From positions 74,834,001-74,898,000 of the forward strand of contig OZ336880.1 in the NCBI GenBank assembly GCA_965287045.1: DNA of 64,000 nt, read 5' to 3'. Shown here piece by piece: positions 11,588-63,415 of this stretch (positions within the stretch are counted from its first letter, which is position 1; each line of letters opens with the position of its first letter). The position numbers were made by a program, and so were the translations under genes. The notes below the pieces were generated by a model. The model worked only from the letters and a program-made list of their open reading frames with translations, did not search any database and was not told where the DNA came from. This DNA comes from Carcharhinus amblyrhynchos (lineage: Eukaryota).

Positions 11588-11895
11588 AAGTTTAAATTTT
11601 ATTTATTAGTGTCACAAGTCATCTTACATTAACAGTGCAATGAAATTACTGTGAAAATCCCCTAGTTGCCACACTCTAGCATCTGTTCGGATACATTGAG
11701 GGAGAATTTAACATTGCCAATGCATCTAACCATACCTTTTGGACTGTGTGAGGAAACCAGAACACCCGGAGGAAACCCAGGCAGACACAGGGAGAATGTG
11801 CAGATGCCATACAGATAGTGACCCAAACTGAGAATCGAACCGGGTCCCTGGTGCTGTGAAGCAGCAGTGCTAATCATTCTGCCACTGTTCTGCCC
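11588..11895 (-). mobile_element. HE1/V-SINE head and body with alternative tail B
   Basis: Same head/body as tail-A copies; tail attctccctcaatgtatccgaacag...ttttcacagtaa...cttgtgacactaataaataaa. Confidence 0.9.
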
Positions 11896-12333
11896 ACTTT
11901 GACAGCAACATGGGCACAGTGTGCTTTCAGTGACAGCCACATCTGAAACAGGACTCTCCGTGTACAGACTGTCAGACCTTTCAAACTAAGATTCTAATGC
12001 CTTGATTAGAGGTGTGCTTAAATGTTGCTGGAGAGAGTGGTGAGATTTCTGTGTGTGCTGCCTGCTGCAGAACTTCACCTTGGAAAGTGTTGGAGTCACA
12101 GGAACAAGTTGAGAAAGTGGAAGAACTGTTGGGGCTACAGAGGAAGAGCAAGGCCTAACAGTACCACCAGCTGCTCAAGTTCTCAGGCAGAAACCAGTGC
12201 TTGAAATATTTTAATGCATATTCTATCGTTTCCCCCATGCACCAGCAATCTCTCCACACAATTAACTCACTCCTCACAACTGTGATCTCAATGCTTTCAT
12301 GCAGTCCTTTCTCCAGGGTGTTACCTCTACATC

Positions 12334-12671
12334 ATAGAATCCCAAGGAGAACGAGGCCATTCAGCCCATTGAGTCTGCACCAACTCTCTGACAGAACGCC
12401 TTACTCAGGCCTATCCCCATAACCCCATACAATTATCCTGGTAATCCCGCTAACCCAAGCTTCTTGGGACACTGAGGGATTATTTAGCATAGGCAATCCA
12501 TCCAACCTGCACATCTTTGGACAGCGGGAGGAAACCGGCGCACTTGAAGGAAACTCACAGCGACATGGGGAGAATGTACAAACTCTACACAGTCACCCAA
12601 GGCTGGAGTTAAACCCAGGTCTCTGGAGTTGTGGGGCAGCAGTGTTAACCACAGTTCCACCATGCCACCCC
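12334..12671 (-). mobile_element. HE1/V-SINE, tail A
   Basis: Full reverse-oriented copy. Confidence 0.9.
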
Positions 12672-13009
12672 ATGACAAAGAATAGTATCAAAACCAACAA
12701 CTAGCCAACAGAACAGTGCAACCTCAGGTTCTTTTATTAATCTTCATTTAACTATTTCTTGTACTGAAAGCAGAGACTAACAATCACCATTATACAAATC
12801 CCTATTGCTTGTCTTTTGTGACTGTGTATTCTCAAGGTCCCATAAGATGCTTTCACAGTGATTGAATTGAAGGGAAATAGAAAATTGCTGAATTCCATTG
12901 AGGGCTCCAGAAATCTTGAGTAACTTTAGCCATAGAACACCCAACTGCTGACTGCAGTATCTGAATGGTAGCCAAACAAGTCAAATTCAACTGGTTGTCT
13001 GGTACCAAG

Positions 13010-13393
13010 AATGTGGCTTTCCTCCAGGTGCTCCAGTTTCCTCCCAAGATCCAAAAATGTGCAGGTTAGGGGGCGGTTTGGTGGCACAGTGGTTAGCATT
13101 GCTGCCTCTCAGCACCAGGGACCCAGGTTAAATTCCAGCCTCGGGTTACTGTCTGTGTGGAGTTTGCACATTGTCTGCATGGGTTTCCTCTGGGTGGTCC
13201 AGTTTCCTCCCATGGTCCAAAAAGTACATGTTAGGTGGATTGGCCATGATAAATTGCCCCTTATAGTGTTGGAGGGATTAGTAGGGCAAATCCATGGGTT
13301 ACGGGGATAGAGCCTGGGTGGGATTGTTATCAGTGCAGTATCGAAGGGCCAGATGGCCTCCTTCTACATTATAGGGTTTCTATGATTCTATGA
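13010..13393 (+). mobile_element. HE1/V-SINE, tail A, preceded by a partial body of the same family
   Basis: Body fragment 13010-13068, then a full copy from 13069 ending ttctatgattctatga. Confidence 0.85.
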
Positions 13394-14269
13394 ATAAGGG
13401 TGTTGACATAATGTGGGGCAGGGGCATACTAACAGAGGGCAAGATTTGCGTCACCCATGCTGAAAATGTTCTGTACATGGGGGCTGTATGTCAAGCTTTC
13501 GCAATGCTATGTCGGAGAAAAGGAGGGAAAAGATAGCATTCAAAAGCCCTTCCCACACCATCCCTCTTGGAATATGGAGCTGATGGTGAGTTTCTGTCAA
13601 AATGATCAGAGTTTCCACCAGAGGCTTCAACATTGTGAGTCCCCGTGCAGTGTTCTTAGATTTGTCCGCCCAATCCCTGGTGGATGGAATGAGCTGAAGT
13701 TTGTGCTTGGAGACCAAACAAAAGGTAGAACCGGACTCTTCCATGTCCTCTGCTATTTTACAGAAACTGACTGGCAGGCTGTGCAGTGAACGTCAATGCT
13801 TGTGTTGTGTAGCCAACCATTCTTTTCTGTAGACAGTATTTTGCGGTCTTCATTTCCACCTCTTTGCGCAGTGTTTGAGATACAAGATTACCCTCTGATA
13901 CAAGGTTACCTGGACTGGCCTATCCAGTTACCCTTCCTCCTGCACACTTGGGTTCAATGAATCTAGTCACCCCCCCCGCCACCTCCCTCACTTCCATCCC
14001 AACCCCTACACCTCTAATCTGTCTCTGAGCTTTGTGCAGTACCAGTCTCTGGGCTGCTGTCTGCTTGAATAACATTGAGTGACTTTGCATCTTCTGGAAG
14101 GCCATTCTGCTCATTCTAGGGTCCTTGTATATCCTCCACAGTTTCAAGATTTGTAAAAAAAAGGGAGAAACAAAGAATTAGCAGCTAACGGCCAGGTTAG
14201 TCAAGAGGGATGAGTGACAACAAAACTTTAGCTTGGAGATAAGATTTCAGCGAGAAGGCAAAGATAGTG

Positions 14270-14615
14270 GGATGGTCAGAACCCAAGTGGGACTTATCTT
14301 TTAATCTCTCCACTTTCCACAGTGGCCTTTTTGGATCTTCTCCTATGTCTGCCTGGTCCTTGTTATTATGTGTCTGCTCCTGCTGCAAGAAAGACGGGAG
14401 TGTGTTCATTACTGTTAGCCTGGTGAGATGTTTTGAGCATGTGCATATTATAGTTGAAACGTGTTGCTGTTGTGTGAGAGATGACATAGGTGTGAAGGAT
14501 GATGGAAGTGATAATGAGGACAGAGCAGGTGCTACAGGTAATGCACGGTACAGCAGAAAGAAACAAGAAATATGAGTTAGGCGTCTTACCTTAAAGGTTC
14601 TTGAGCAAAGAGTAC
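14270..14615 (-). pseudogene. Decayed Harbinger Myb/SANT-like ORF relic with a ~200-nt intron
   Basis: Donor AAG|gtaaga (~14590), acceptor gtctttcttgcag| (~14385), then QEQTHNNKDQADIGEDP, resembling the EKxAHNxRExxxTGGGP segment that follows the Myb/SANT-like domain. Confidence 0.45.
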
Positions 14616-14635
14616 TTATATTTCAGCCAGGTCTT

Positions 14636-14965
14636 TGGAGACAGTGACCTAGTTGTATTATTGCTGGACTATTAATCCAGAAACTCAGCTAATGTTCTGG
14701 GGATCCAGGTTCAAATCCTGACACTCCAGATGGTGGAATTTGAATTCAATAAAAAATATCTGGAATTAAGAATCTACTGATAACCATGAAACCATTGTCG
14801 ATTGGTTCACAAATGGCCATCCTTACCTGGACTGGCCTACATGTGACTTGAGACCTACAGCAATGCGGTTGACTTTCAGCTGCCCTCTGAGCAAGGGCAA
14901 TTAGGAACGGGCAATAAATGTTGGCCAGCCAGCGACGCCCATGTCCCACGAATGAATTTTAAAGA
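14636..14965 (+). mobile_element. tRNA-derived SINE (family B)
   Basis: ggttcaaatcc B-box; tail gggcaataaatgttggccagccagcgacgcccatgtcccacgaatgaat. Confidence 0.85.
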
Positions 14966-14981
14966 AAGGAAAGTGATATGA

Positions 14982-15072
14982 ACACAAAATGCTGGAAATA
15001 CCCCACAGGTCAGGCAGAATCTATGAAACAAAACAGAGTAAACATTTCAGGTTGAAATGATTTCATCAAAAC
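14982..15072 (-). mobile_element. Penelope-like fragment (family P2), decayed hammerhead-like core
   Basis: Minus strand: TTGATGA...cctGAAAtgtttactctgttt...agattctgcctgacctg...ccagcattttgtgtt; homologous to 16158-16240, 42038-42130 and 59345-59452. Confidence 0.6.
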
Positions 15073-15074
15073 CC

Positions 15075-16137
15075 GAGCCGGAAATCTCCCCAAAAAATTC
15101 TAAGTCTCACATTCGTGTGAAACTGGAGTAATTCACTTTGTTTTTTCCAGTGAGAGTTCGGAGGAGGATTTCCCACACTCTGTACACCGCAGAGGCCACC
15201 AGTGTGAATATCATCAAAAACTAGGGGGTGGGGTCTATCCCCACTGAAAAGACTGAAATCAGCATGCTGAGTGAATTACTGTGCATGCGTTGATCTATCA
15301 GTGCCGAGATCAGTGCATGCACAGTGACCCCGCACTGACAGCCTTCTGTTTGCTGGCCAGCTTAATCGCTTAACCCCCCACAATGCCGGCTCTCTGCCCC
15401 TCATGACCTGATCACTAGCCCCCCCAATCATTCCTGGGTCCAGACCTTGACCCCACCTCCTGGCGCTCTGATCTCCAGCGCTACCCCCGACAATTTCCAC
15501 TTCATAGTCCCATTTCCCCAGACAGTATCACGCCCTCCAGCAGTCCTGACTCCCCCTCTAGCTGTCCCCCCACCCCCTCACCAGCCCACTTCAATTGCTG
15601 GCCTTGCTCCTTCCCCCATTGATCACTATGCAGAGCGGCAGTGGGACCCCCTCACCTCCTACCCCTTAACACTGCCCATCAGGCATGAGGCAGCCCATCA
15701 AGCCTTGCCTCAGGGGCGGTGCCAGAGGCCCAGGTTGGAACCCGATACCTAGGAGTCACCCTGCTCTCCCTTCGTGCCCAACCCTCAGTGGGGCTCCAAT
15801 TGCCCCCACTTCACTCCAGCAGGGTCGGGCCAGTAGTTCCCTGAAATCTTCTGTAAACCCTACTGGAGTGAAATACTACTAGTGCGGTGGAGAAGCTATC
15901 GGATCCAGAGCCTTCTGTCCTGGACTTGCTAATGGGATTTAATAGGATTTAAAGTATATGGTAATGAACAATACAATAACTTATGTGCCTCCCCGCCAAT
16001 TTCCAGTCACTGGAATTGATGCCATTGGAAATCCGGTGCTGGGAGACACTAGAGGGTCAGGATGTCCAGCGCAGATCGCATGCACTGGGCACTGCTGGAG
16101 TCTCCCAGCCTGCCAGCGGGCTGTGAGAATCGTACCC
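15075..16137 (+). mobile_element. ~1-kb Harbinger-like non-autonomous element
   Basis: Colinear with 5662-6703; termini gagccggaaatctcc...gagaatcgtaccc. Confidence 0.7.
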
Positions 16138-16157
16138 TCCCCCACCCTATCACCACC

Positions 16158-16240
16158 AGTTTCTGCTTCTCTACACAGATGGCTGTTGAGTATTTGCAAT
16201 GTTTTATTTTTGTTTCAGACTTCCAAAGTATTTTGCTTTT
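16158..16240 (+). mobile_element. Penelope-like fragment (family P2)
   Basis: tctctacacagatggctg...tgagtattt...tttgtttcagacttcca. Confidence 0.55.
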
Positions 16241-16379
16241 GTGCTGCCTTGGAACAGCACTGTTGGATCTGACCTGCTCTTCCCCTTCACAGGAGAGAGA
16301 GGCAGCAAGGCACTGAACTGTAGGGAATAAATTCTAGAAACTAGGCCTGGACATTTGAAGATATGGCTGCTAATTATGA

Positions 16380-16820
16380 TTGAGATGCTCAAGAGGCCAG
16401 AATTGAAGAAGTGTTGAGATCTTGGGTGGTTGTACAAGTGGAGGATGCTATAGGGGATTAACGTGACAATTTTAAAATCGAGGCAAATACAGGCTAGTAA
16501 ACACAGGGTTGATGGATGAATCGGACTAGGTGTGAGTTAGGATATAAGGAGAGTGTTTTAGATAAGTTCATGTCTATTGAGTGTGAAAAATTGGAGGGTG
16601 ATCAGGAGAGTATTACAATAGTCAAGTCTAGAACCAACAGCGGCATCAGCAATAGTTTCAGCAGATGAGCTGAGGCAGGGACAGAAGTGGGCAATGTTAT
16701 AAAGTTGGAAGTAGGCAGTCTTTGTGAAGGAACAGGTACATGGCTGAAAATTCATCTCAGGGTCAAACACAATATCATGGCTACGATTGGTCTAATTCAA
16801 CCATAGGCAGTTGCCCAGAA
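16380..16820 (-). mobile_element. L2-clade LINE 3' fragment
   Basis: Minus-strand peptide TKTAYFQLYNIAHFCPCLSSSAETI...SRLDYCNTLL is a classic L2 ORF2 C-terminal motif. Confidence 0.85.
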
Positions 16821-17444
16821 GAGGGAAGGGATTATGCCCTCCAATATTATTTCAAATCATGCTAATAGATTTTAACTTCAGGAAGAATGACTGATGGAAT
16901 GATAAATCCTTGGCTGTCAAGTGAGTGAAGATTTTGTAGCCATCTTAAGCTTAGAAATCATTCAAATCTCACCGGTGAGTGGCTTTCAGCCCAGGGACTT
17001 CCTATTATAACTCACCAGCTCTGGGCCAATGCAAAATTGGACAGTTAAGACAATAGAAAGGCCCAAAACTAAGTCACTAAAGGGGTGTCCAGGGGAACTA
17101 GAATCTAGAAGTGGGTGGGTAAAGTTCAACATTCTGCCGGCAGCAGTTTTACAGAGCCAGAATAAGCCACATGATGTGTGTACAACATCAATTCCATGGG
17201 GAAGGTCATTTAAAGACCGTAGCATGAGTTGGTGTTACAGAGCAATAAAGTCTATAGATCATGGCCACCCCACAATGATCGGGCCAGGTGAAAATTGACC
17301 CACAGCCCATATCACAGGATCAATCATTAATATTATAAAAGTGGAACTACTTGAACACAAAAGAGTAGCTTCACCTTGTAATATTAACTTTAATATTAAT
17401 CTTAAATGACTGAAAGATAGACATTTTAAATTGCTCATTACTGG

Positions 17445-17631
17445 GCTTCTTTGGCCACCCTGAGGCATTTTTCTCACAGTGGGATACGGCGTACCTTTTC
17501 TTGGTGATGAGATCTTCTGGTCCCCCTGCTATCAATGTGATTTGCCATTGAATCCACCCTCTCATCCCCAGGAAACCTGCAGCAGGGGGGTGTGCTGTCA
17601 GTGGGATCCTGCTGGCATGAAGATCAGGCCC
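17445..17631. mobile_element. Short Harbinger-like MITE (~180 bp class)
   Basis: Similar to 29430-29612 and, inverted, to 11064-11240. Confidence 0.55.
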
Positions 17632-17652
17632 CATGTCTCTCCAATACATTAT

Positions 17653-17985
17653 CATAGAATCCCTACAGTGCAGATGGAGGACATTTGGCCCCTCGAGTCT
17701 GCACCGACAACAATCCCACTTAGGCCCTATCCTTGTAACCCCACATATTTACCCCACTAATTCCTCTAACCTACACATCCTGGGACACTAAAGGACAATT
17801 TAACATAGCCAATGCGTCTAACCTGCACATCTTTGGACTGTAGGAGGAAATCCACACAGACATGGGGAGAATGTGCAAACTCCATACAGTCAGTGACCCA
17901 AGCTAGGAATCGAACCCAGGTCTCTGGAGCTGTGACACAGCAGTGTTATCTATTGTGCCACCCTCCGCTGTGCCATCATGCCATG
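17653..17985 (-). mobile_element. HE1/V-SINE, tail A
   Basis: Full reverse-oriented copy. Confidence 0.9.
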
Positions 17986-18066
17986 CTACCTTTTCTTCTT
18001 CATTTTCTTTTCACTTTTTTTTTACTTTTACATCATTCCTTATTTAATCATGCATTATTTAATGTT

Positions 18067-18343
18067 TTAAAGTTTATTTATTAGTGTCACAAGTAGGCTT
18101 ACATTACTGCAATGAATTTATGATCAAAATCCCCTGGACATCACACTCTGATACCTGATCGGGTACCCTGAGGGAGAATTTAGCGTGGCCATTGCACCAG
18201 AAAACTGGAGCACCCGGAGGAAACACGAGTAGACACGGGGAGAGTGTGCAGACTCCCTACAGAGAGTGACCCAAGCTAGGAATCAAACTGGGTCCCTGGC
18301 ACTGTGAGGCAGCAGTACTAACTACTGAGCCACCGTGCTGCCA
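18067..18343 (-). mobile_element. HE1/V-SINE, tail B (internal deletion)
   Basis: Head ggcagcacggtggctcagt; tail gtaagcctacttgtgacactaataaataaacttt. Confidence 0.9.
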
Positions 18344-18355
18344 TGAAAATAATAG

Positions 18356-18428
18356 CACTCAATGTGGGGCCTGAACCCACAACCCTGAGATTAAGAGTCT
18401 CATGCTGTACCGACTGAGCTAGCCAGGC
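18356..18428 (-). tRNA. tRNA-Lys(CTT), probably a pseudogene
   Basis: GCCTGGCTAGCTCAGTCGGTACAGCATGAGACTCTTAATCTCAGGGTTGTGGGTTCAGGCCCCACATTGAGTG (73 nt). By eye it differs at about 8 positions from the conserved vertebrate tRNA-Lys-CTT, half of them CpG transitions, and the T-loop TTCGA is changed to TTCAG. No CCA; TTTT shortly downstream. Confidence 0.9.
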
Positions 18429-18466
18429 AAAAAATTGGTACTTCAAGGTACAAGTTCTACCTCGAT

Positions 18467-18540
18467 AAGAAGCCAGGTTAAAGTCCAACAGATTTATTTG
18501 GTATCATGAGCTTTCGGAACACTGCTCCTTCATCAGGTGA
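18467..18540 (-). mobile_element. Penelope-like fragment (P1) with a minimal type-I hammerhead ribozyme motif
   Basis: TCAC-CTGATGA-A-GGAGC(AGT)GTTCC-GAAA-GC-TC-ATGA at 18540->18504. Confidence 0.8.
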
Positions 18541-20576: not shown

Positions 20577-20878
20577 GGGGCAGCATGGTAGCATAGTGTT
20601 AGCACTACTGCCTCAAAATGCCTGGGACCTGGGTTCGATTCCTGGCTTGGGTCACCGTCTGTGTGGCGTTTGCACATTCTCCCCATGTCTGCATGAGTTT
20701 TCTCCCTCAGTTCAAAGATGTGCGGATTAGGTAGATTGGCCATGCTAAATTGCCCCTTAGTTCCAGGGGCACTAGCTAAGGCGAATGCATGGGATTGTGG
20801 GGATGGGCCCTGGGCAGGATTGTGGTCGGTGCAGGCTTGATGGGCCGAATGGGATCCTTCTGAACTGTATGATTCTAA
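20577..20878 (+). mobile_element. HE1/V-SINE, tail A
   Basis: Near-full copy with intact ggttcgattcc B-box. Confidence 0.9.
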
Positions 20879-21354: not shown

Positions 21355-21810
21355 TTTGATTTGATTTATTATTGTCGCATATATTACAGTGAAAAGTATT
21401 GTTTCTTGCACGCTATACTGACAAAGCATACCAGCATACTGTACATAGAGAAGGAAACAGAAGAGTGCAGAGTTTAGTGTTACAGTCATAGTTAGGGTGT
21501 AGAGAAAGATCAACTTATTGCAAGGTAGGTCCATTCAAAAGTCTGATGGCAGCAGGGAAGAAGCTATTTTTGAGTCGGTTTGTGTGTGACCTCAGATTTT
21601 TGTATCATTTTCCCGACAGAAGAAGGTGGAAGAGAGAATCTCCAGGATGTGTGGCGTCCTTAATTATGCTGGCAGCTTTGCTGAGGCAGTGGGAAGTATA
21701 GTCAGAGTCAATGGATAGGAGGCTGTTTTGTGTAATGGATTAGGCTACATTCACGACCTTTTGTAGTTTCTTGCAGTCTTGAGCAAAGCAGGAGCCATAC
21801 CAAGCTGTGA
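21355..21810 (-). mobile_element. Rex1/Babar LINE 3' fragment
   Basis: Reverse complement of the 3' end of 33051-34627, including the aataaatcaaatc tail. Confidence 0.85.
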
Positions 21811-21869
21811 ACCAAACAGGTGCACTCGCATTAGAGACAGTATAGCAAAGTTCCACTAAATAAACCTCA

Positions 21870-22380: not shown

Positions 22381-22392
22381 AAGTTTGAGATT

Positions 22393-26736: not shown

Positions 26737-27014
26737 AATTAAATTTTATTTGTTAGTCACAAGCAGACTTACATTTACACCGCAATTAAGTGACTATGAA
26801 AATCCTCTAGTCACCACACTGAGGGAGAATTTATTATGACCAATTCACTTTAACCTGCACATCTTTGGACTGTTGGGGGAAACCAAAGCACCCAGAGGAA
26901 ACCCACACAGACATTGGGAGAATGTGCAAACTCCACAGAGACTGTGACCCAAGCCAGGAATTGAACCTGCGTCCCTGAGGCAGCAGTGCTAACCATTGTT
27001 CCACTGTGCCACCC
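26737..27014 (-). mobile_element. HE1/V-SINE, tail B, inside an older tRNA-derived repeat
   Basis: Reverse tail-B copy; its flanks (26672-26730 ggtcagttagctc..., 27015-27125) resemble one interrupted SINE. Confidence 0.8.
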
Positions 27015-28167
27015 TGTTGTGATGGTTCATGGAGGCCTGGCCCATTACCTTGTCACATGTTTGCAGAGTGGTGTCTCCCAAGCTGCATCTGTAATAGAGA
27101 GAGATGCACCTGGTCCTTTGTGAACCATGCCTTGCCTAATCTCTCCAGATTTCAGATAAACATATTAAGCATTCATTTACTAGTATTAATTTCAGGATTA
27201 TGGTATCAGAATCACTTCACTATCATGCAAGCAAAATCTCTGCCGTCCTTATAACCCCATATCCTATATAGAGACCAATTCCAGTCTCAGATGAGATGGT
27301 CATTCTAAATTTTACCCAGTGCATTAGTGAGTAGGAAGGAAAGCTAGCTTAGATTGTTGGGTGCTTCAAGTATTACCAAACTGGGGGCCCTTAAGGATAG
27401 GCCAAGAAAGAATATGTATTTGTATCCCACTGGAACATAGAATGAAAACAACCATATTACGCTGAGAGAATCAGTGTACTTTTATCAACTAACTTCAATA
27501 AAGGCAGAAATTATGCAATAATGAAGACCTATTACTGTGAAGATGTGCAAGACTAAAATATGACTGGATTTTTGTCACAGTGGAAGCCTCTCCGACAGAA
27601 GTATTTGAAAATCAAGAGTCACAGCCCTGAGTGCCGTGCATTCCATTTTCCCTGGGGCAAGATTGGGGATGGTTCGCGTTTTGTACATGCACAATTAACA
27701 GAGGCTGTAGGCCATTTAAGTACCTCTAATGTTGGATTTTTGTATTCCATGAGTCTGGAACTCAAAGTGGTTCTACTACAAATACAGCTTAGGAGACAGC
27801 ACTCTGTAGGCATGGGACAAGGCAATGAGTGGACCTGGTAAGATCAACTCAGAGCCTTGTGCGTTTATGTAAATAGCTGGTGTATCCCTTTGGTAAGGTA
27901 CCACTACGGAATTAGGTTCAAACTTGTCTTCGCTGTCCCAGAATTTCTTTAATCTGATGAAGTAAGAGGGTGGGGCAACTGGTCAGGCAGAGCAATTATT
28001 TTTGTTCCTACTGACTCATGCACCTAGGTGCCAGGAAGAACATTGTGCTAGTGAAGGGTCAGATTGGCCATTGTGCAGAGTAGATTCTCACAAGGCTCTC
28101 GAAAATCACAATTACAATCAACCAGCCTCTGGTGGCATATTTTCACCCAAAGAACCTTATACATTGA

Positions 28168-28789
28168 ATCATAGAATTCCGACAGTGCAGAAAGAGGCCA
28201 TTTGCCCATCGCGTATGCACCAACAACAATCCCACCCAGGTCCTAGCCCTGTGACTCCATGGATTTACCCAACTAATTTTCCCTTTCACAAAGGGGCAGT
28301 TTAGCACGGCCAATCCACCTAACTCATACATCTTTGCATTGTGGGAGGAAATCGGAGCACCTGGAGAAAACCTATGGGGAGAATGTGCAAACTCCACATA
28401 GACAGTGCCCAAGGCCAGAATTGAATCTGGAGTTTTTGGCACAGTGAGGTAGCAGTGGCACAGTAGTTAACACTGCTGCCTCACAGCACCAGGGATCTGG
28501 GTTTGATTCCCAGCTTGGGTCACTGTCTGTGTGGAGTTTCTCCTCGTGCCTGCGTGTGTTTCCTCCAGATGCTCCTCCAATAGTCCAAAGATATGTGGGT
28601 TAGGTGGATTGGCCAGGCTAAATTGCCTCTTAGTGTCAGGGAACCTCACTAAGGTAACCTCGCTAACCTCGCCTGGGGTTATGGGGACAAGGTCTGGGTG
28701 GGATTGTGGTCAGTGTAGATTCAATGGGCTGAATGGCCTCCTTCTGTATTATAGGATTCCATGATTCATAAGCACTGTGCCACCATGCC
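28168..28789. mobile_element. Nested inverted HE1 SINE pair
   Basis: Minus copy 28168-28455 whose extreme 5' end reappears at 28771-28789; a plus copy (~28455-28770) sits between them. Confidence 0.85.
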
Positions 28790-33050: not shown

Positions 33051-34627
33051 AAAATCACCAGCACCACGCACCCCTCCCTGATGAGCTCAATGCATTCTAT
33101 GCCTGCTTTGAGTAAGAAGTTGGTGAGAGCACACCATCCACCGCAGATGAATCTGTATCCGAGGTCACCATTCAGATGTCAGAGCAGCCTCCTCGAAGGT
33201 CAGCCCACAAATGAACACTTAGATCCTGTGCAGACCAGCTGGCGGGGGTATTTCGATCTCTCTTTACAACAATATGAGAGCCTTATCTGCTTCAAGAAGA
33301 TGAACATCATTCCAGTACCAAAGAAAAGCCAGGCAGTGTGCCTTAATGACTATCGTCTGGTAGCTCTGACATCCATCATTATGAAGTGCTTCGAAAGGTT
33401 AGTCATGGCACGGATCAATTCCAGCCTCCCAGATTGCCTGGATTCGCTATAGTTTCCTTTTGCTGCAAAAGATCCACAGCAGACAACATCTCCTTGGCCC
33501 TACGTTCAACTCTGGACCACCTAGATAACAAAGACACTGATGCCAGACTCTTATTTATTGACTACAGCTCAGCCTTCAACAACGAAATTCATCTCCAGAA
33601 TCCATGGCTTGAGACTCAACTCCTTCCTCTACGGCTGGATCCTGAGCTTCCTAATTACAGATCGCAACCAGTAAGGACAGGCAACAACACCTCCTCCATG
33701 ATCATCCTCAGCAACAGCGCTTAGTCCTCAGCTCTTACTATACTCCTTACACACTTATGATCTTGTGGCCAAATTCCTTTCCAACTCGATCTTCAAGTTT
33801 GCTGATGATGCCACTGTAGTGGGTTAGATCTCAAACAAAGACGAGATGGAGTACAGAAAAGAGATAGAGAATCCGGTGAACTGGTGCAACAACAATAATC
33901 TGTCCCTCCAGGTCAGTAAAAGGAAGGAGATAGTCAACAATTTCAGGAAGCATAATGGAGGACATGCCTCTGTCTATATCAATGGGGATGAAGTAGAAGT
34001 GGTCAAGAGGTTCACATTTTTAGGTGTCATCAACAACCAGTCTTGGTCCCCCCATGCTGACACTGTAGTTAAGAAAGTCCATCAACATATCTACTTTCTC
34101 AGAAGACTAAGGAAATTTGACATGTCTGCTACGACTCTCACCAACTTTTACAGATGCACCGTAGAAAGCATCTTTTCTGGTTGTATCACAGCTTGGTATG
34201 ATTCCTGCTCTGTCCACAACTGCAAGAATATACAAAAGGTTGTGAACGAAGCCCAGTCCATCACTCAAACCAGCCTCCCATCCATTGACACTGTCTACAC
34301 TTTCCGCTACCTTAGGAAAGCAGCCAACATAATTAAGGACCCTACACACCCTGGACATACTTCTTCCTTCAGGAAAAAGATACAAAAGTCTGAGGACACG
34401 TACCAACTGACTCAAGAACAACTTCTCTGCTGCCATCAGACTTTTGAATAGACCTACCTTGCATTAAGTTGATCTTTCTCTACATCCTAGCTATGACTAC
34501 AACATTATATGCTGCACACTTACCTTTCCTTCTCTATGAATGGTATGCTTTGTCTGTATAACATGCAAGAAACAATACTTTTCACTGTATGCTAGTACAT
34601 GTGATAATAATAAATCAAATCAAATCA
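33051..34627 (+). mobile_element. Rex1/Babar non-LTR retrotransposon, 5'-truncated, disrupted RT
   Basis: Motifs IIPVPKK, CLNDYRLVALTSIIMKCFERLV, LLFIDYSSAFN, KFADD (aagtttgctgatgat ~33796), YFLRRLRKF, FYRCTVES; frameshifts; tail aataaatcaaatcaaatca. Confidence 0.95.
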
Positions 34628-34989: not shown

Positions 34990-35156
34990 GGAGTCTACGC
35001 ATTCTCCCCATGTCTGCATGGGTTTCCGCTGGGCGCTTTGGTTTCCTTCCACCATGTACCCGAACAGGGCCCAGAGTGTGGTGACTAGGGGACTTTCAGA
35101 GTAACTTTATTGCAGTGTGAATGTGAGCCAACTTGTCACACTAATAAATAAACTTA
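34990..35156 (+). mobile_element. Partial HE1/V-SINE with tail B
   Basis: Central-domain fragment plus tgtacccgaacagg...taataaataaactt. Confidence 0.85.
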
Positions 35157-50109: not shown

Positions 50110-50406
50110 TTTATTTATTAGCGTCACAAATAGGGTTACATTAACATTGAAATGAAGTTACTGTGAAAATTCCCTAGTCGCCACACTCCAGCGCCTGTTT
50201 GAGTACTCTGAAAGAGAATCTAGTATGACCAATGCATCTAACCAGCACGTCTTTCAGACTGTGGGAGAAAACTGGAATACCTGGAGGAAACCCACACAGA
50301 CATGGGGAGAATGTGCATATTCTGCACAGTGACCTAGCAAGGAATTGAACTTGGGTCCCTGGTACCGTGAGGCAGCAGTGCTAACCATAGTGCCACGATG
50401 CCACCC
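50110..50406 (-). mobile_element. HE1/V-SINE, tail B
   Basis: Full reverse copy. Confidence 0.9.
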
Positions 50407-52684
50407 TCAAGGTGGACAGTAAAACTCCCATTGCCCTCCTCAAAGTGTGCCATAGCTCAACCAGTCTTGCCTTTTATGTTGCCATCATCCTCCCATTTGA
50501 TGGTAATAGGTCTGATCCTATCTCCTAAATCCACCTTTTTCATAGTGAGGTGTATACAAAATTATTGCTGAATTAGAAGTGCCGAATTAGACCTTTTTTT
50601 GTTTGCTTAACTCCTGTTTTGTGTGCTCTGAATAGAAGGTTGCAGACCCTTGTTTTTAAGTGACCCACAGCTACTTGAGAGAGCAGGCTTTCCTCTTATC
50701 GACGTGAGATGGATTCAGACTAAGTTTCCAGAGGTGAAAGATTATCATTCTAACCCAATGTGCCACTCCTTTCCCTGCAATTTGTTTTTTAATTCGTTGC
50801 TGCTTCCTTAGGACATTCTCCCAAAATTAAGCAGGCAAAGGGTCATGGACCCAGCTTTGACCCTTGGATCTATCGAGTTCCCTCATTCCAAGGGATGAAA
50901 GTTCAAATGCAGTGCAAGAGGAGGCTCTCGCAGCCGCAAGGTTAACGTCATCTTGAAAATCACAGTTCAGAAGATGCAGACGCACAACTGGAAGAGAGAA
51001 AAACACATAAATGCTACCACATTTAATTTGTTCGTTCTTACATTTGCATCGCTGATTGCTAACTATTTAAATATTAGCTGAATATTATAGTTATGAATCT
51101 GTTGTACCCCTGATATAAATTAACATTATAAATGCCAGCATAATCCACTCAGCACCACAGAATGCGCCCACCTGCCAGACACCTGTTCCCACTGTTTCAA
51201 TACTCTTTGATTACAGCAAATGCTGGGTCTCTTCTGAAGTAATGAGCAATTTTTACATTTTGCATGATTAGAAACAGATGCTGACAAAGCCTAGCTCTGC
51301 AGTTGTATGCATGAGCAATCGCTGATATGTTTATGATTAGAAATTACAAGAAGTCAAATCAGTGTTAATGCTATAAAGTAAACACCATATTTTTTTAAAA
51401 AAAAACAAAAATTCTGATTCAGCATCTCCTCTACTAGTTAATAACAACACATCTCTCTTTAATAAGACAGCTAACACATCAGAAGCTAACAAAACTCAGG
51501 ATGCAGAACTATATTCATCACCCACAGCCAGTCAACCAAATTGTCAATGCTTGTGTTTTGACTAACCGCATCTCATTCCCAATAAATGCAAGACTGAGGT
51601 GATGGAGGGGAAAGAATGTCATGTGATCAACAGGACAGGTTCAAAGTAACTTCCAGGCATCAATAGATAGTTTAAAATTGTAATTTTATTGAGATTATAC
51701 CATTTGTGATTGATTGGCTTGAGTTTTCAATGCACTGGGGCCAATTTTGACTTGCAGAAATTAGCCTTAACTGGGCGTTAATGGTTTTATGTTGGAGGCG
51801 GGAGACTTAACCGATCCATTAATGGCCATAGCCACCACAGTGTTCACAGAGACTGTGTGCTGAGCAGATGATGTGTTGTCTGTTTTAGTTGGCATGTTTG
51901 TTTAATATAAATTGAGGTTCTATGACATGCATGGATTGACACTTTCAGACAGAACTGGTGAACCGTGAACTCGAAACGATTTTACTGGTAATGATGGCTA
52001 AAAAGTCGCTTGAGGGGTGTGTAGAGTGGAAAGTAAAGCGAGGCCGCTTGGACATCCTGTACCCCAGCCCCACCACCTTTGTGATTGCGACAACCCCAAA
52101 GTCTTTACCCAATGATTGGAGACTGAACTTCTGACTCTGAACTCATGTAATATGATTCTCCCACATTTATGAATAAGCTTCCTATCAGCTGTAATAAAGA
52201 TCGTTACGACCAAGATTTAGATATTTAAATCATGACTAGTTAGAATGTTAATCAGCCTACGAATTCTTCCATTATTTCACATCAGAAGCAATCAACTTTT
52301 TGTCTTGCTGTGTGCATCTCACTTAACTTTCTGCTCTTCTAATAATCTCTACATTGCTAACTTATGTTCACTTCTACTGCATTTCTTGACTTCTTCTTTC
52401 CCTTGAAAATTCCTGCCCTCTGTCCAATCCCCTTTATTATTTTTTAATGCCAGCATCTTCTGTTAAATTCCATGCATCCCACCTCAATCCTATTGAGTTT
52501 CTGAATTCCCTCTATTACATCTTGACCCACTTCCTCAGTCCTGTCCACCCTAGCTTAATCATGTCATCTTCACCTATGCCTCCTTATCTTAATTTCACTC
52601 ATCTATTTGTGGTCTCAATGCCTCTCCTAATTCTTTTTCATGCATTGCATGCTCAATTTCCCCATCACCCCATTCCTCATAGGA

Positions 52685-53013
52685 TCATAGAATCCTTCAG
52701 TGCAGAAGGCGGCAATTGGCCCATCGAGTCTGCAGCGACCACAATCCTATTCAGGCCCTATCCCCATAACCCCGTGCATTTACCCTAGCTAGTCCCCCTG
52801 ACACTAAGGGGCAACTTAGCATGGCCAATCCACTTAACCCGCACATCTTTGGAGTGTGGGAGGAAACCAGAGCGCCCAGAGGAAATCTATGCAGAGACGG
52901 GGAGAACACACAAACTCCACGCAGACAGTGACCCGAGCCAGGAATCGAACCTGGGTACCTGGCACTATGAGGCAGAAGTGTTGACCACTGTGCCACTGTG
53001 CCGCAATGCCACC
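52685..53013 (-). mobile_element. HE1/V-SINE, tail A (relatively young)
   Basis: Full reverse copy retaining many CpGs and an intact B-box. Confidence 0.92.
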
Positions 53014-55859: not shown

Positions 55860-56410
55860 GTTAAAGATCTCATTTTGTCAGGATTAGAAGATGAACAGGA
55901 AGATCTCCTGGTGTCTGGATAATGTTACTTCTTCAATAAACATATCTAAGTAGATTAATCAATCATTCACCTCATTGTTGTTTGTAGTTTCATCCTGTGT
56001 GTAAACTTGGCAGCATGTTGGCACAGTGGATAGCACTGCTGCCTCACAGCTCCAGAGGCCTGCACTCAATTCCTGGCCTGGGTCACTGTTTATTCCGTGT
56101 CTGCTCATTCTCCTGTATCTGCGTGACCTTCCTCCAGGTGCTCTGGTTTCCTCTCACAAACCAGAAGAAATGCTGGTTAAGTTCATTGGCCATGCTAAGT
56201 TCTCCCTCAGTGTACTCAAACAGGGCCCTGGAGTATGGCGACAGGGGGATTTTCACAGTAACTTAATTGCAGTGTTAATGTAAGCCTACTTGTGACGCTA
56301 ATAACTAAATCTTTCTGCATTAACCAAAAAAACTGCACTTCAAAGTAATAAACTGAATCTGAAGAACCTTGGAATGCATCTGATACATGCAGCTGTCTAT
56401 ATAAATCCAA
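55860..56410 (+). mobile_element. Deu-domain SINE interrupted by an HE1 tail-B SINE (56009-56310)
   Basis: Deu-like gaagatgaacagg..ctcctggtgtc...ctcattgttgtttgt before the insert; cacttcaaagta...ctatataaat after it. Confidence 0.8.
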
Positions 56411-56453
56411 ATTTTTTTTATATATTTTGTTTGCTTTTTCCATTTCCTTCATG

Positions 56454-56797
56454 AGGCAGTATGGTGGCACAGTGGCATAGCGGTTAGCACAGCTGCCTCA
56501 CAGCACCTGGGATCCGGGTTTGATTCTGGCCTTGGGTGACAATCTACATGGAGTTTGCACATTCTCCCCATGCCTGCGTAGGTTTCCTCCGAGTGCTCTG
56601 TTTTCCTCCCGCAGTTGAAAGATTTGCAGGTTAGGTGGATTGGCCATGTTAAATTGCCCCTTGGCGTCACGGGATATGTGGGTTAGGGCGATTAATGGAG
56701 TAAATGCATGGGGTTACGGGGCTAGACCCTGGGTAAGGTGCTCTGTCAGACTCGATGGGCTGAATGACCTCCTTCTGCACTGCAGGATTCTATGATT
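56454..56797 (+). mobile_element. HE1/V-SINE, tail A
   Basis: Full copy. Confidence 0.9.
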
Positions 56798-58443
56798 GCA
56801 TGAGTCAAACGTTTGAGGTTAAAATAAAGCAAAACTCCACTGTTGTACATTACACATAATTACACATGCCCTTCCTATAACACTGCCCCACCCGTCCTCC
56901 CCCGCTACCCTTGCCTTAATGTCACAAGTTGAATTTTCCACAGCGCAAAGACGTAATTGAGATAATTTGGCAGAGGATACAGCTTGCACGTTAAGCAAGA
57001 ATATATACAAACATTTTAAAACACAATTGACTTCTCTTTCAAACAAAAACGTACTGTAAAATATAGTGCACAGCTGACATCTTGTCTCGGACAGAAACAG
57101 CACAAAACAAGCACTGCATTCTAAATCAGACCAGGGCCATACTTCTCCATACCAGGAGCATGAATGCAAAAAAAAACATGCCTGAGGTTGCAACATCTTT
57201 TTTTAAAAATTAGGAGAGAGGACCCAGAGAAGCGACAGCCAATTCCTTCTGTAAGAGGATTTTAAATCAGTAAGATGGTGCTTATCGTTAGAGATTCTCA
57301 ATTCAGTCTGGAACTGAACCTGGCAACAGCTGTAATTTTTCATCTAAATGGATAAAACTTGATGAAGTGTTAGATAATACAAATAAAATGTTGAACTCAG
57401 AATTCGGAACTCTGGAAGGAGGCCAAACAATTAAAAAAAATAAAGATTTCAGCGTAAGAATCGTCAGGATTCGTGAGGTCCTTCAAACATCGTAATTATT
57501 AAAAAATAAACACATTATGAAGAGGTATCAAGTTTTGATTTCTGCTAATTGAAACTTTGCAATTGGTGGGTAATGCTGGCTGTCAATCAGTGTGAGCCAT
57601 GGACCGATAATATCATTTTTTGTCAGCCATATGCTTCGAACTCTCCACCTCATCAGAGGCATAAAACCACAGGCTCATGCAGATTGATGACATTCCTATA
57701 CATCTTCCCGTGAGTGTCGGTTAAATTAAAAACGTAATGTCAATAGATCGTCAGCATCTCTATAACGAGCATTGAAAGTTCAAAACTGGCAAGGTTTTTT
57801 TCAGTGGTTCGTAAGCGCAGAGTGCAACCTTTTCCTCCGGGCTTTTCTCTCCTTTGTCATTGTTACAAAATATGATGCATTATAAAAAGGAAGGTGGAAG
57901 TGAATTCATCCCATCTTAGCTCATTTATCAAGAAAAACCCGGTGGTTCCCTCATTAGTGAGCCTGATACATAAGCAGTTCTAGCCTTTCCATCTCCACTA
58001 CAAACACCAAAGTCTGTTTAATGCAGTGACCATTCATTGCGTGATGAAGAGTTTCCTGACACCTTTCTTAATTTTTCTTTTTGTAATCTTGAATCTATGT
58101 CCCTTTGTCCTGGTACAATGATTTAATTTGAGGTCCTATCTTCTTTTTATCTTCTTTTTTTATCCCTGTATGGTTATCTTAAGCATCTTTTATCAAATTT
58201 GCAAAGTCCAAGGCTCAGTTTTTCACCACAATGGAGAGAGAATCTCTCCGTTATGGTGAGAATAACAGAATGCTGAAAATGCCAAGTCTTGCCTCAGACA
58301 TGGCACTTTACATTTTTGCAGGGGTGGGATTAGGGGATAGGGGTGTTACACCATCCACGTTTTGTAGCGTCAACTGTTTGTTGACTTAAACAAAGCTTCT
58401 TTCCTGCTGCTGTTAGACTTTTGATTAGAGTTACCTTGCATTA

Positions 58444-58775
58444 GGGGCAGCACAGTAGTTAGCACTGTGGCTTCACAGCTCCAGGGACCTGGGTTCGATT
58501 CCCAGCTTAGGTCACTGTCTGTGTGGAGTTTGCACGTTCTCCCCGTGTCTGCGGGAGTTTCCTCCGGGTGCTCCGGTTTCCTCCCACAGTCCAAAGGTGT
58601 GCAGGTTAGGTTGATTGGCCATTCGAAAATTGCCCCTTAATGTCATGAGATGTGTAGGTTAGAGGGATTAGTGGGTACATGTGTAGGGATATGGGGGTGG
58701 GACCTGGGTGGGATTGTGGTTAGTGCAGACTCTGTGGGCCAAATGGCCTCTTTCTGCACTAAAGGGTTTCTATGA
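58444..58775 (+). mobile_element. HE1/V-SINE, tail A (relatively young)
   Basis: Full copy with intact A/B boxes and retained CpGs. Confidence 0.92.
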
Positions 58776-58946
58776 TTAAGTTGATCTTTCTCTCCACCCT
58801 TGGTATGACTATAATGCTACACTCTGAACTCTCTCGTTTCCTTCTCTATGAATGGTATGCTTTGTCTGTATACCGCGCAAGAAACAATACTTTTCACTGC
58901 ATGTTAATACATGAGACAATAATAAATCAAATCAAATCAAATCAAA
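58775..58946 (+). mobile_element. Rex1/Babar 3'UTR fused to the preceding SINE
   Basis: attaagttgatctttctct...aataaatcaaatcaaatcaaatcaa matches ~34463-34627. Confidence 0.9.
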
Positions 58947-59109
58947 CACAAGCATTAGCAATTAGTATTATTACTACTTGACTACTTATACTCTTTATCA
59001 TTATTTGAGTGGCGGACTGTCAGTTCGTCATTTAATCTCCCTCACCTTCTAATTTACCCCTGACCTTCCCTTTTGCTCCTCCTAGCCCTCCCCAAATGTT
59101 CAACACCAT

Positions 59110-59235
59110 GGGTGGGATATTCTGACCATGTCATCCCAAAACCAAAAACTCCTGCCTGAGTTCAACGGACCTTCCTACAGCACATCGCTCGCCTGCTAAA
59201 ATTCCTGTGGTGGGCGGAGCAGGAAAATTTGCCCC
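59110..59235. mobile_element. Short Harbinger-like MITE
   Basis: gggtgggatattct...ggaaaatttgccc termini. Confidence 0.65.
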
Positions 59236-59276
59236 TCTAAAACCCATCACATGCTCTGCTAGAGTGTCTATCAGAC

Positions 59277-59452
59277 AATCGATGGGCCAAATGGCCTCTT
59301 CTGCACTGTTGGGATTCTATGATTTTATGATTTCTACCTCTTGTCAGTCCCAAAGAAAAGTCATATTAGGCTCAAAACGTTAACTCAGTTTCTCTCTTAC
59401 AGATGCTGCCAGGCTTGTTCAGTTTTTTCCAATAGCTCCTGTTTTCAGTTCA
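59277..59452 (+). mobile_element. HE1 tail fragment followed by a Penelope-like (P2) fragment
   Basis: tcgatgggccaaatggcctc...ttctatga, then aaacgttaactcagtttctctcttacagatgctgcc. Confidence 0.7.
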
Positions 59453-61989
59453 CCTGTATATATTACAATGCAGTAAATTCAGCATTTGATTGACAGCCTC
59501 AAATGGTCAGTAAGGGATTGGCAGTCTGATATGGGGACATAAATACAAATGATTGTTTTTCTGAAGGATTAATACTTGAGGGCATTTAAATGCACAGAAT
59601 GGCATTTGTCAACGAGTGTTTGTTTTATATAGTGAAGTCTATAATAGATATTTTGGTCTAGATTTTCACCTTTGTGCAGACAGTAAAAGTCAGAAAGTTT
59701 CCCAGTTCAGTGGCTCACCTTGGGATAAAGTATTTGTAAATGTGTAGTTTCTGTTCTGGAGTGGGCTGTGAGGGGTAACAGGAGTTAGGTCTGCCTTCAC
59801 TGCAAAGAGTTTGTGGGCAGCCACTGAGGCTGCTACATGTGGAGGAGGGTCGGTTAAAAGGCTCACCTCAGTGCTCTGCGTCTTCGTTCCAGTTACAGTA
59901 GGATCAGTTAAACAAAAAAAAGCTCTCCTGCCCTCATCCCTCACTCATGTGACTCTCACCCCTGTCACCCACACACACTCCATATGACCCATCCATGCCA
60001 ATTCATGCCCTCTAATCCCCCACTCATTCCCATGGGCCCTCAAACCATCCATGCCAGTCTGTGTCCACCACACACTTCCTTGGTCCCTCATTGAACCTTA
60101 TAATGACAATAGCATAAATAAGAAAGCTTTAAAAAGTAGACTTTTGTTCATAAAATTGAGCTCTGTAAAAGTGCCAATCATCAAGACCCTTTAAAGTATC
60201 AGTCACAGAAACAACAAGCACTTGAAAAATCTTTGTGTAAGTAAACAATGTGAGAGTTACAGAATAGGTCAGAGAGAAAGAACAATCAATCAAGCAATAT
60301 TTTCCTGGAGCACAACTGTTTCACCAGAGTAATGGATGTTTGGGTTCTCAGCCAAGCCTCATTATGCATTCCTGTGCTCAAGTCTGTGAAGTAGGACTGT
60401 GAACAGGGAACAAAAGAGCTTAAATATGGCTTCATCTGACCTATATTCCACTGTTCTGCCTGGTTAGCTTTGCAAACCTTTGGTCTTGTTACATGTTGCT
60501 CCTTGGTGATTGGGCCAATTAAGTGTCAAGGCTGCTAAAACTTGTAAAGCTCTTTTCACATTTTAGCTATTTTGACAAAATGTTCTGTTCATTTTTCTTC
60601 CTATATAGCATTCATTAACTGGATCTGGACCTACACCCTATCTGGCATGAAAAGATTTGCAAACACTTCTGAATCAAGACCATGATGCCTTTATAACTTC
60701 AAAGCACAATGGAAATGAACCAATACAGTCTTACAAGATCTTTGTCCTGACTGTAAATTGTTGACAAAGATTGTGAAGCAAAGTAAAACCTTAAATTATA
60801 ATCACTGTTCTGATTATAGCACCAGAAATATCATAGGGAGAGGAAATTCAACAAGGAACCTCAACATATTATATGTCAGCAAAATGGAACTCTCTCTCAG
60901 TCCCATTATCAAGCAGTGCCCATGTAGTTAGCCAACGAGATTAGCAGTAAAACGGCCTTTTAGGCAGCAAACGCATGTAACATTCCTGGGCAACTTGATT
61001 TTTTTTCCTTCATTTATGTTTTTAATATTCCCTCATCTAAATGGGCCAAGTGAGCTGGCAGTGAGACCTATCTCTGAATTCTAATAGATGAATATTTGTA
61101 CAGTTAGTAGGAGCTAATGGGATCATTTTCATTCTGTTACAGCAAATCAACAGTTACAGAATTGCCATCTGTGGTTTTGGTAACCTGCATCAGATGTGAA
61201 TTCTGTTACTGCAAGGTAGAGCAGCTTGTTTAATGATTCCTAATCTTTTTTTTAATTAAATCATTCAGTCAGCCTTACAAAATGTATCTGAAAGCAGCCG
61301 CAAATTGCTGTTCTGAAAGTAGCAGCAGGATATTTAACTGGCATAGGTTGCAACTTCGAATGTAACAAAAATAATGAAACCATTTTTATAAAATACACTG
61401 ATTTATGTACCGGCCTACCTTCTTGTATGAATAATTAAGAAGTCACAGAAGATGTTAATTACTTACACTGATAAAAATAGTTAATCAATGTTAACAGAGA
61501 GGTACTGGGAGAAAGAAGTTATCCTATAAAATGCATATGCTGGCTTTTACTTTCCAAGCTGATATTAGCTCAGGGTTATGGTTTATCCCTAACCCTTAGT
61601 TGATGAGACTTGCAGTGCTTAATTGCTGAGATATCAGCACCAATTGAAAAAAAATGTATTATGATATACACTTGTAGACTTCTGAGACTCATCAGTTATT
61701 GGATGCATGAATTATACTAGGTGCAGATAACATTACCCAAGGTATGATTAACAAGTCCAAATTGAACCGAGTCTGGTTGGTTTGGGTGAAGAATTGTTTC
61801 AGGTGGATTTGCATTCAAGTTACAAAAAGGGTGTCCCTGGAAAATAGTACCTCCAAACACATGAACTCTTCTATCTATAAAGAGAAGGGCGGCAGGCAGA
61901 TAGGAACACCATCATCTTCAAATTCCCCTCCAACTCACATACCGTCCTGGCTGAGACCAATATATTGTTGCCAGCTGTTGCCCAGTTAG

Positions 61990-62380
61990 TAGCTAATTCA
62001 TCTCTGAGTTAGAAGGTTGTGGGTTCAAATCCCACTCTGTGGACTTCAGTGTAAACATTGAGGACAACATTTCAGTACAGTGAAGTGGTGTTGCCCTGTT
62101 TAAAGTTCCATCCTTTGAGTGAATCAATTTTTCAACTGATGCCCTTCCAGATTCCCTAGCACAATTTTGAGGAACAGGGGAGTTCTTCCTCATGTCTTGG
62201 CCCATATTTATCCCTGAACAGACATTGCTAAAACAGATTATCCGGTCATTTATCTCATTGCTGTTTGTGAGACGCAGCATGGTTCTGTAAATTACATTAA
62301 TAAATATTGTTTTGGCTGTAAAGTGCTTTAGGACATGCCAAGGTTGTGAAAGGCATTATATAAATGTAAGTTCTTTCTTT
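61990..62380 (+). mobile_element. Deu-domain SINE (SacSINE1/AmnSINE-related) with L2-type tail
   Basis: Head with gggttcaaatcccact; Deu-like core gaacaggggagttct..tgtcttggcccatatttatccct..aaaacagattatc..attgctgtttgtg; tail tgtaaagtgcttt..aaaggcattatataaatgtaagt. Confidence 0.85.
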
Positions 62381-62452
62381 ATACTGCGGTTCCTTCATTG
62401 TTGCAGTGCCAAACTCTTGTGACTCCTTGCCTAACAGTGCTGTTAGAGTACC

Positions 62453-62703
62453 TTAGAAACGCTACAGAGCACGAGGAGGCCATTCGGCCCATTGAGCCTG
62501 CACCAACCCACCCAGTCCCACAACTCCACGTATTTAATCCCATTGACACTAAGGACTAATTTAACATGGCCAATCAACCTAACCCACATATCTTTGGCAG
62601 GAAACTTGAGCGAATGTACAAACTTCACACAGTTATCTGTGGCCAGAATTGAACTTGGAGCTGTGAGGCAGCAGCGCTAATCCCTGCACCACAGTGCCAC
62701 CCT
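62453..62703 (-). mobile_element. HE1/V-SINE, tail A (internally deleted)
   Basis: Reverse copy with head and tail. Confidence 0.85.
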
Positions 62704-63112
62704 TAATCACACAAGCTTCAGAGGTTCAAGATAACGCTTGATGATCACCTTCTCAAGAGCAACCCAGGTCTGGGAAATAAAGTGCTGGCCTTTCCACACC
62801 TATTTTCTGTGAAGGAATGAAAAATAGACATATTGCTCTCTATTTCCTATACACGACGGCAGTGAGCGTGTCAAGATAGTCACTGCATGATCATTTTTAG
62901 ATGGGTTTCTTAAGTTTGAAACTAAAATAACACAAATCTTTAATTTGTCTTCATAAAAATCGAATGCCTTCCCTGCTTTCAAAAAAATATGTTCATCTTG
63001 ATGCGGATCTCCCTCCACCTGAAATTTCATTGCCTTTTCTCTTCTAGGTATTGACTGGCCTCCTGTGTATTTCCAAACTGTCCTGTCTAAATGCAAATAA
63101 ACAGGGAAGATG

Positions 63113-63415
63113 GTGGCATGGTGGCACAGTGGATAACACTGCTGTCTCAACAGCATCAGGAACCCGGGTTCAATTCCCGGTTTGGGTCAGGGTCTGTGTG
63201 GAGTCTGCACGTTCGCCGTGTCTGCGTGGGTTTCCTCTGGGTGCTCTAGTTTCCTCCCACCTCAGATGTACTGGTTAGGATGCACTGGCCATGCTAAATT
63301 CTCTCTTAGCGGACCCAAACAGACGCCAGAATGTGGCGACTAGGGGATTTTCACAGTAACTGCATTGCAGTGTTAATGTAAGCCTACCTGTGACATTAAT
63401 AAATAAAAATTAAAT
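63113..63415 (+). mobile_element. HE1/V-SINE, tail B
   Basis: Full copy ending tgtgacattaataaataaaa. Confidence 0.9.

Follow-up and report, generated by a model that had tools for sequence, protein, structure and literature searches.

A shark V-SINE tail probably derived from the two ends of a Rex1-type LINE

Stringent long interspersed nuclear elements (LINEs) depend on their own 3′ tail. Partnerships of LINEs with short interspersed nuclear elements (SINEs) have been tabulated in PMC3747384, the available part of which gives HE1 with HER1 in sharks and rays, SINE2-5_NV with Rex1-24_NV, and the salmonid SlmI, HpaI and OS-SINE1 with RSg-1. Bipartite SINEs (Bov-tA, Mar-1, AfroSINE, WALLSI2 and SINE2-1_ACar) are described in PMC5786205; in the portion of that paper at hand, the middle parts of SINEs draw on 5′ regions of RTE and Vingi alone, two-ended non-autonomous LINEs are given only for RTE, Ingi, Vingi and R2, and Rex1 is mentioned neither in this text nor in its readable supplement. 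The same model of a deleted LINE is applied to hagfish RTE, with SINE1-1_EBu and SINE2-9/10_EBu (PMC7245038, accessible sections), and Rex1 is reported from elasmobranchs, without ORF1, in the accessible sections of PMC13343379. Here, we describe a V-SINE of Carcharhinus amblyrhynchos found in a 64-kb stretch (contig OZ336880.1, positions 74,834,001 to 74,898,000 of the forward strand; called the window below) inside the 2.92-Gb assembly GCA_965287045.1. Its copies share a head and a V domain and end either in a CR1-type tail (tail A, SINE-A) or in a different one (tail B, SINE-B). Tail B is probably a captured two-ended mini-Rex1 that became attached downstream of the V domain in a CR1-dependent V-SINE; the copying of the resulting family would thereafter have fallen to the reverse transcriptase (RT) of Rex1.

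Tail B and the two ends of RexA

In 1.3 to 1.4 Mb of fetched DNA, tblastn recovered CR1 families, which dominated the sample, together with a single abundant family of Rex1 type (RexA) and an RTE-like element that is rare. RexA has the organization of the Rex1/Babar clade, a single open reading frame (ORF) with endonuclease, RT and a C-terminal PF09004 domain, and the corresponding search gave 45,274 candidates. The tie between PF09004 and Rex1 is one that we assume, and the matched proteins are not named Rex1 by their sources; among the matches listed, the RexA protein was 55 to 61% identical to most teleost proteins combining RT and PF09004. The nearest named protein piece was 83% identical and came from a shark; taken with the repeats present (V-SINEs and several CR1 families), it suggests a cartilaginous fish. 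A near full-length protein match (amino acids 56 to 966) was obtained in one locus, the ORF opens directly at the 5′ end, and the start of the element, found by walking upstream, was sharp in 20/20 loci.

At the 3′ end, tail B and RexA are identical at 20 of the 23 terminal nucleotides (nt) and at 10 of 11 nt on the other (5′) stem arm, and the two differences within the stem are compensatory, an A-T/T-A exchange across it. The earlier note on this DNA had pointed to a terminal motif pair, common to tail B and Rex1, that could form a stem. The folds predicted for the two majority sequences share one stem, bulge included, and the commonest RexA loop hexamer (22/69 ends) recurs at the apex of the predicted longer hairpin of tail B; the homology at this end is limited to the two stem arms, the loop hexamer and the AATAAA end. 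The gapped score of tail B against the RexA end exceeded those of all 5000 dinucleotide shuffles, versus p=0.47 for tail A. In a positive control, tail A matched 93 of 152 CR1 3′ ends, while tail B matched 3, each accounted for by nesting of SINE-B, by a RexA end next to it or by nothing beyond AATAAA, in line with the earlier view that tail B is unrelated to CR1. The RTE-like element was discarded as a donor, since its end has no match to tail B; it is rare in the genome and includes a 411-codon open frame (locus L272, positions 2066-3805).

Three Rex1 3′ ends in the window finish in the motif pair as previously described. RexA is represented there by a broken, 5′-truncated copy at 33059..34621 (+ strand) that retains part of the RT, the PF09004 domain (E=1.3e-6), the 3′ untranslated region, the short-loop hairpin and ATCAA repeats (tblastn/blastn), and by two 3′ fragments at 21358..21819 (− strand) and 58383..58933 (+ strand), in the latter of which a tail-A SINE lies at 58450-58777, accompanied by a duplication of 4 nt.

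Tail B also holds a piece resembling the RexA 5′ end. In a comparison of 20 RexA copies with 52 unselected tail-B copies, RexA nt 7 to 26 agreed with tail-B nt 22 to 41 at 18/20 columns, with CpG decay at the same columns, and this piece lies directly upstream of the 3′ Rex1-like piece. One of the two mismatches is a CpG transition; the other, a transversion, is matched by a RexA subfamily, for which the SINE letter at this non-CpG position gave 80 matches versus 8 for the two other bases together. Against this subfamily, the agreement is 20/20 if CpG decay is allowed. Of 1500 shuffles, a single one equalled the ungapped score (p=0.64 with tail A and 0.997 with the head), and none of 3000 attained the score of the joint match to the 5′ and 3′ ends in the right order, compared with 1143/3000 for tail A. 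Tail B is therefore most likely bipartite, with a LINE 5′ piece upstream of a LINE 3′ piece, the former being weaker in the gapped test. The presence of the RexA 5′ end, which the earlier note had not noticed, strengthens the link between tail B and Rex1, and the origin from a Rex element put forward in the earlier note is supported by matches to Rex1-type ends and not to CR1 or RTE ends.

A second, rare Rex lineage (RexB), with ca. 50% protein identity to RexA, was recognized in 11 of 30 loci viewed after a codon-shifted pattern search. The stem at its 3′ end is similar, the terminal hairpin and loop are longer, and the repeats are TTGAA (L367, L400-L408, L412 and L413), so both loop and repeat vary within the clade. 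The RexB end is weakly like that of RexA (36/3000 shuffles). As a donor, RexB was rejected: 666 of 3000 shuffles reached the score of its end against tail B, and its 5′ end was not found.

Two-ended RexA copies and the origin of tail B

RexA itself yields internally deleted copies that keep both ends. In 18 of the 20 RexA 5′ ends fetched, 140 to 190 nt of 5′ sequence (a length biased by the 161-nt query) were joined to the 3′ region, and the same structure was present in 13/15 copies of the subfamily and in 5/5 RexA 5′ ends met by chance at other loci. Breakpoints of the 18 copies were spread over positions 669 to 839 of the 948-nt reference, and one copy retained just a 37-nt 3′ piece; such differing breakpoints suggest a fresh deletion at each insertion. 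Genome-wide, the RexA 5′ end gave 2588 candidates, compared with 826 for the N terminus of the ORF. Another small repeat, seen in three copies, combines an unknown head of ca. 100 nt (the repeat had no Rfam match) with a two-ended RexA tail, also of ca. 100 nt, made of 30 to 40 nt of the RexA start and 60 to 80 nt of the RexA end, the same design as tail B. Two mini-Rex copies considered as a third V-SINE tail were dropped, their upstream part not being V domain. The 5′ parts of deleted RexA copies often stop near a pyrimidine-rich CAG resembling a splice acceptor (L505-L524, L530-L544).

On this basis, the following course of events can be proposed for tail B. A mini-Rex1 made of ca. 25 nt of the extreme 5′ end and ca. 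60 nt of the 3′ end of the LINE would have come to lie immediately downstream of the V domain in a tail-A SINE, either because a deleted copy inserted there or through a template switch. The donor would have been an older or sister form of RexA, because the 5′ variant and the long loop do not occur together in any present RexA subfamily. Transcription by RNA polymerase III from the SINE head would then give RNAs ending in a Rex1-type stem and AATAAA, an end that the Rex1 protein may recognize and from which its RT would copy SINE-B. A bolder version, to which we give somewhat less than even chances, is that Rex1 is a further LINE clade in which two-ended deletion copies form as a matter of routine, every one with a different breakpoint, through a jump of the RT within its own RNA, from the 3′ region to the 5′ end, and that one of them shifted the shark V-SINE from CR1 to Rex1 dependence. 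A need of the Rex1 protein for both RNA ends would then have preserved the 20-nt 5′ piece in some 200,000 copies.

Several observations weigh against a captured mini-Rex1. The tail-B loop has 26 nt versus 6 nt in RexA, and the terminal repeats differ; the RexA subfamily carrying the SINE-type 5′ variant has, for the most part, another loop, nor is the end of the rarer RexB matched by tail B. Without the AATAAA part, the 3′ match reaches only p=0.024, and with gaps allowed, over the initial 165 nt of RexA, the 5′ match taken alone is of modest strength (p=0.017 and 0.037). The hairpins were no stabler than those of shuffled sequences (z of −0.24 for tail B and −1.79 for RexA; single copies from −1.95, the value of the window RexA copy at 33059..34621, to +0.76). 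Target-site duplications failed as a signature of the partner: duplications of 4 to 5 nt or small deletions were alike in Rex (36 cases), SINE-A/CR1 (39) and SINE-B (19), so that Rex, SINE-B and CR1-type insertions are not separable by this feature. Finally, pattern searches of the genome for tail-B letters behind sequence other than the SINE body, or behind the end of the Rex ORF, found no LINE with the loop or the terminal repeat of tail B. These searches covered 30 viewed of 485 matches, 100 of 320 (30 viewed), 100 of 396, 100 of 879 (30 viewed) and all of 75, and beyond these a rare LINE donor with the exact tail-B end is conceivable. Their yield consisted of SINE copies with truncations or deletions, of SINE-B lying inside or beside RexA, and of chance matches, and one further search gave 5 matches at three places, all of them SINE-B copies. 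The test suggested in the earlier note, that non-SINE matches to tail B would run into a Rex RT, thus came out negative in this material.

The shortness of the 5′ match, its richness in GC and CpG, and its gapped p values of 0.017 to 0.037 over 165 nt would fit an ordinary tail swap, in which only the last ca. 60 nt came from a Rex1 3′ end and the 20-nt likeness is a coincidence. Yet the match involves the extreme start of the LINE, immediately precedes the 3′ piece, holds at 18/20 columns with shared CpG decay while the controls are negative, and loses its single transversion in a RexA subfamily; two-ended RexA copies, moreover, are common. We therefore consider coincidence unlikely. A tail taken from an extinct or rare LINE outside Rex1, alike to RexA by convergence on a common stem-plus-AATAAA end, would account for the lack of an exact donor and for a loop and terminal repeat unlike those of RexA; in addition, the lineages seen in ca. 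1.4 Mb were limited to CR1, Rex1 and an RTE-like one, with L2, Tx1 and Nimb partners outside the direct search. Convergence, however, leaves the 5′ piece unexplained, and the joint match to both RexA ends, reached by 0/3000 shuffles, with CR1 and RTE ends unmatched, makes such an origin very improbable.

A last alternative accepts the Rex1 origin of tail B but supposes that SINE-B went on being copied by CR1 (HER1-type) enzymes or by whichever LINE was active. The similar insertion signatures of all three classes and the dominance of CR1 in the sample are compatible with it; against it, the CR1-type tail has been wholly lost from SINE-B, and stringent LINEs require their own 3′ tail (PMC4176376, accessible part), so we would give it hardly any credit. 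SINE-B was joined directly to a RexA 3′ end in 9/30 loci, and such joins were considered as template-jump chimeras proving a partnership, an idea abandoned when the tail-A SINE control behaved in the same way (15/30 versus 17/30) and the missing SINE 5′ parts turned up upstream. The chimera-like joins are RexA insertions into older SINEs. RexA often inserts into these SINEs and SINE-B also inserts into RexA, and this nesting in both directions indicates that the activities of RexA and the SINEs overlapped.

The SINE family in the window and the genome

The elements are dispersed and non-coding, with 5′-truncated copies, a common 3′ end and a short repeat tail, as expected of SINEs. Two core motifs of the window SINE occur 11 and 8 times in the published V-SINE consensus sequences of the PMC6887750 supplement (the part available), and the V domain stands behind the head, the flanking order agreeing by eye. 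The head resembles published V-SINE heads, and A-box-like and B-box-like motifs are visible in its alignment; ARAGORN, and Rfam at 8 loci, found no tRNA match for it.

Self-comparison of the window recovered all seven tail-B copies named in the earlier note, and the approximate count of 13 CR1-tailed copies was borne out by thirteen that combine this head with a complete or partial tail A (at 4551, 8332, 12669, 13080, 17962, 20583, 28455, 28457, 39966, 53002, 56463, 58450 and 62701). Head and central domain are common to both types, as had been described, but the divergence had been placed right at ggccatgctaaatt, whereas the likeness runs ca. 12 nt beyond it. In the V-SINE consensus sequences published for frogs and fish (PMC6887750, available supplement), these ca. 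12 nt fall, by eye, within the V domain, so tail B proper begins later. The terminal motif pair ascribed to tail B stood in part: the 5′ stem motif is exact in 4/7 copies and decayed in the remaining ones.

The copy at 63112..63407 (+ strand) is full length, with the head (a putative polymerase III promoter region), V domain and tail B, and is 88% identical to the family majority sequence over 303 nt; its Rex1 5′-end-like piece (63322..63341, + strand) agrees with the SINE-B majority at 17/20, and its Rex1 3′-end-like piece (63348..63403, + strand) has two stem arms, the longer loop and the AATAAA end. Three other full-length copies, at 56009..56309 (+ strand), 50110..50405 (− strand) and 11595..11894 (− strand), have the 5′-like piece at 56224-56243 (16/20), 50176-50195 (19/20) and 11664-11683 (15/20), and a 5′-truncated, internally deleted copy at 34990..35155 (+ strand) has it at 35067-35086 (16/20). 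This piece is thus kept at 15 to 19 of 20 positions in 5/7 copies. A deletion spans the tail-B start in the copy at 26742..27013 (− strand), and the one at 18070..18343 (− strand) has a V-domain deletion and a decayed 5′ stem arm. Examples of SINE-A, with the same head and V domain followed by the CR1-type tail, are found at 52684..53002 (− strand), 56463..56797 (+ strand) and 20583..20877 (+ strand). At 28167-28766, two tail-A SINEs stand back to back in opposite orientation with their 5′ end region in common. The middle of tail A is variable, with at least two or three length variants in the window and at random loci that retain the CR1-type end.

A genome search with tail B gave 2946 candidates; at the 30 best loci, at least half of the head and body lay upstream in 27 and only the end of the V domain in the other three. 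A sample of 664 kb, composed of the window and 600 kb taken at fixed steps, contained 53 tail-B matches, which by extrapolation puts the family at about 200,000 copies genome-wide, and 39 of the 114 heads reaching the junction ran on into tail B. Median identity to the majority sequence was 86% for RexA (36 copies), 83% for SINE-B (38) and 78% for SINE-A (64), indicating that all three are old and that SINE-B is younger than SINE-A. A recurrent variant of SINE-B, seen at five loci, lacks the last ca. 25 nt of the V domain, so that its body almost touches the Rex1 5′-like piece; it is possibly a subfamily. Another subfamily has one additional A ahead of this piece (L370-L399), and several of its near-identical copies, located at contig ends with shared flanks, look like segmental duplicates. 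Tail B also occurs alone in tandem repeats at two loci, one of which (L527, the other being L379) has a unit of ca. 91 nt starting at the Rex1 5′-like piece. In sequencing runs, 73 to 100% of the words of the tail stretch were present under five organism labels, a hint that the SINE family is common to several species. A metagenome scan for an 18-mer gave 55 matches, none of which ran on as tail B.

Comparison with described SINEs

No description of a shark V-SINE with a Rex1 tail was met in the literature searched, with Repbase and Dfam outside the comparison: none appears in PMC11481361, nor in the available parts of PMC5499810, PMC5804259, PMC6274825 and PMC3531059, the supplements of the last of which may include tails of shark SINEs. 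Given its abundance, the family probably figures in some repeat library already, perhaps without its two-ended anatomy being described. The Rex partnership that the earlier note proposed is supported, but it is not as little described as was thought, given the SINE/Rex1 pairs already tabulated (PMC3747384, available part), and therefore the partnership alone is not the novelty. Tail swap and Rex1 partnership are known in kind, and the two-ended Rex1 origin may be the part that is new.

Among described SINEs, HE1 with its partner HER1 shares with the window SINE a head of putative tRNA type and a V domain in a cartilaginous fish, and tail A matches CR1 ends just as HE1 reportedly matches HER1; we call tail A HE1-like by likeness. 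SINE-B differs in having replaced the CR1-type tail and, since tail B matches only 3/152 CR1 ends and so does not share the tail of HER1 that marks the HE1 family, it is not filed as HE1. SINE2-5_NV, SlmI, HpaI and OS-SINE1 have, as SINE-B does, a 3′ end shared with a Rex1-type LINE, if RSg-1 is, as we presume, of this type. None of them is a V-SINE, comes from a cartilaginous fish or is given as carrying a LINE 5′ end in the available part of PMC3747384. The V-SINEs of frogs and bony fish (Racla-like and Ac1; PMC6887750, part available) have, by eye, the same head and V-domain core as the window SINE and unrelated tails, and neither tail-B motif is present in the supplement file to the extent that it is available.

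The closest in design are the bipartite SINEs, which share with SINE-B the order of head, conserved body, LINE 5′ piece and LINE 3′ piece, as well as a proposed birth from an internally deleted LINE. One genome here shows both products of the tail swap, both LINE partners and, in the two-ended mini-Rex1 copies, a likely intermediate, which supports the proposal that unexplained middle parts of SINEs stem from internally deleted LINEs. With its 5′ piece of 20 nt and a 3′ stem in which a longer loop is tolerated, tail B would also offer a minimal natural candidate for the RNA signals of the little-studied Rex1 protein. The bipartite SINEs differ from SINE-B in their donors, RTE and Vingi in the accessible text of PMC5786205, and in that the 5′ piece of SINE-B is merely 20 to 25 nt long; if our reading of tail B is true, Rex1 joins the short list of LINE clades that donate 5′ pieces to SINEs.

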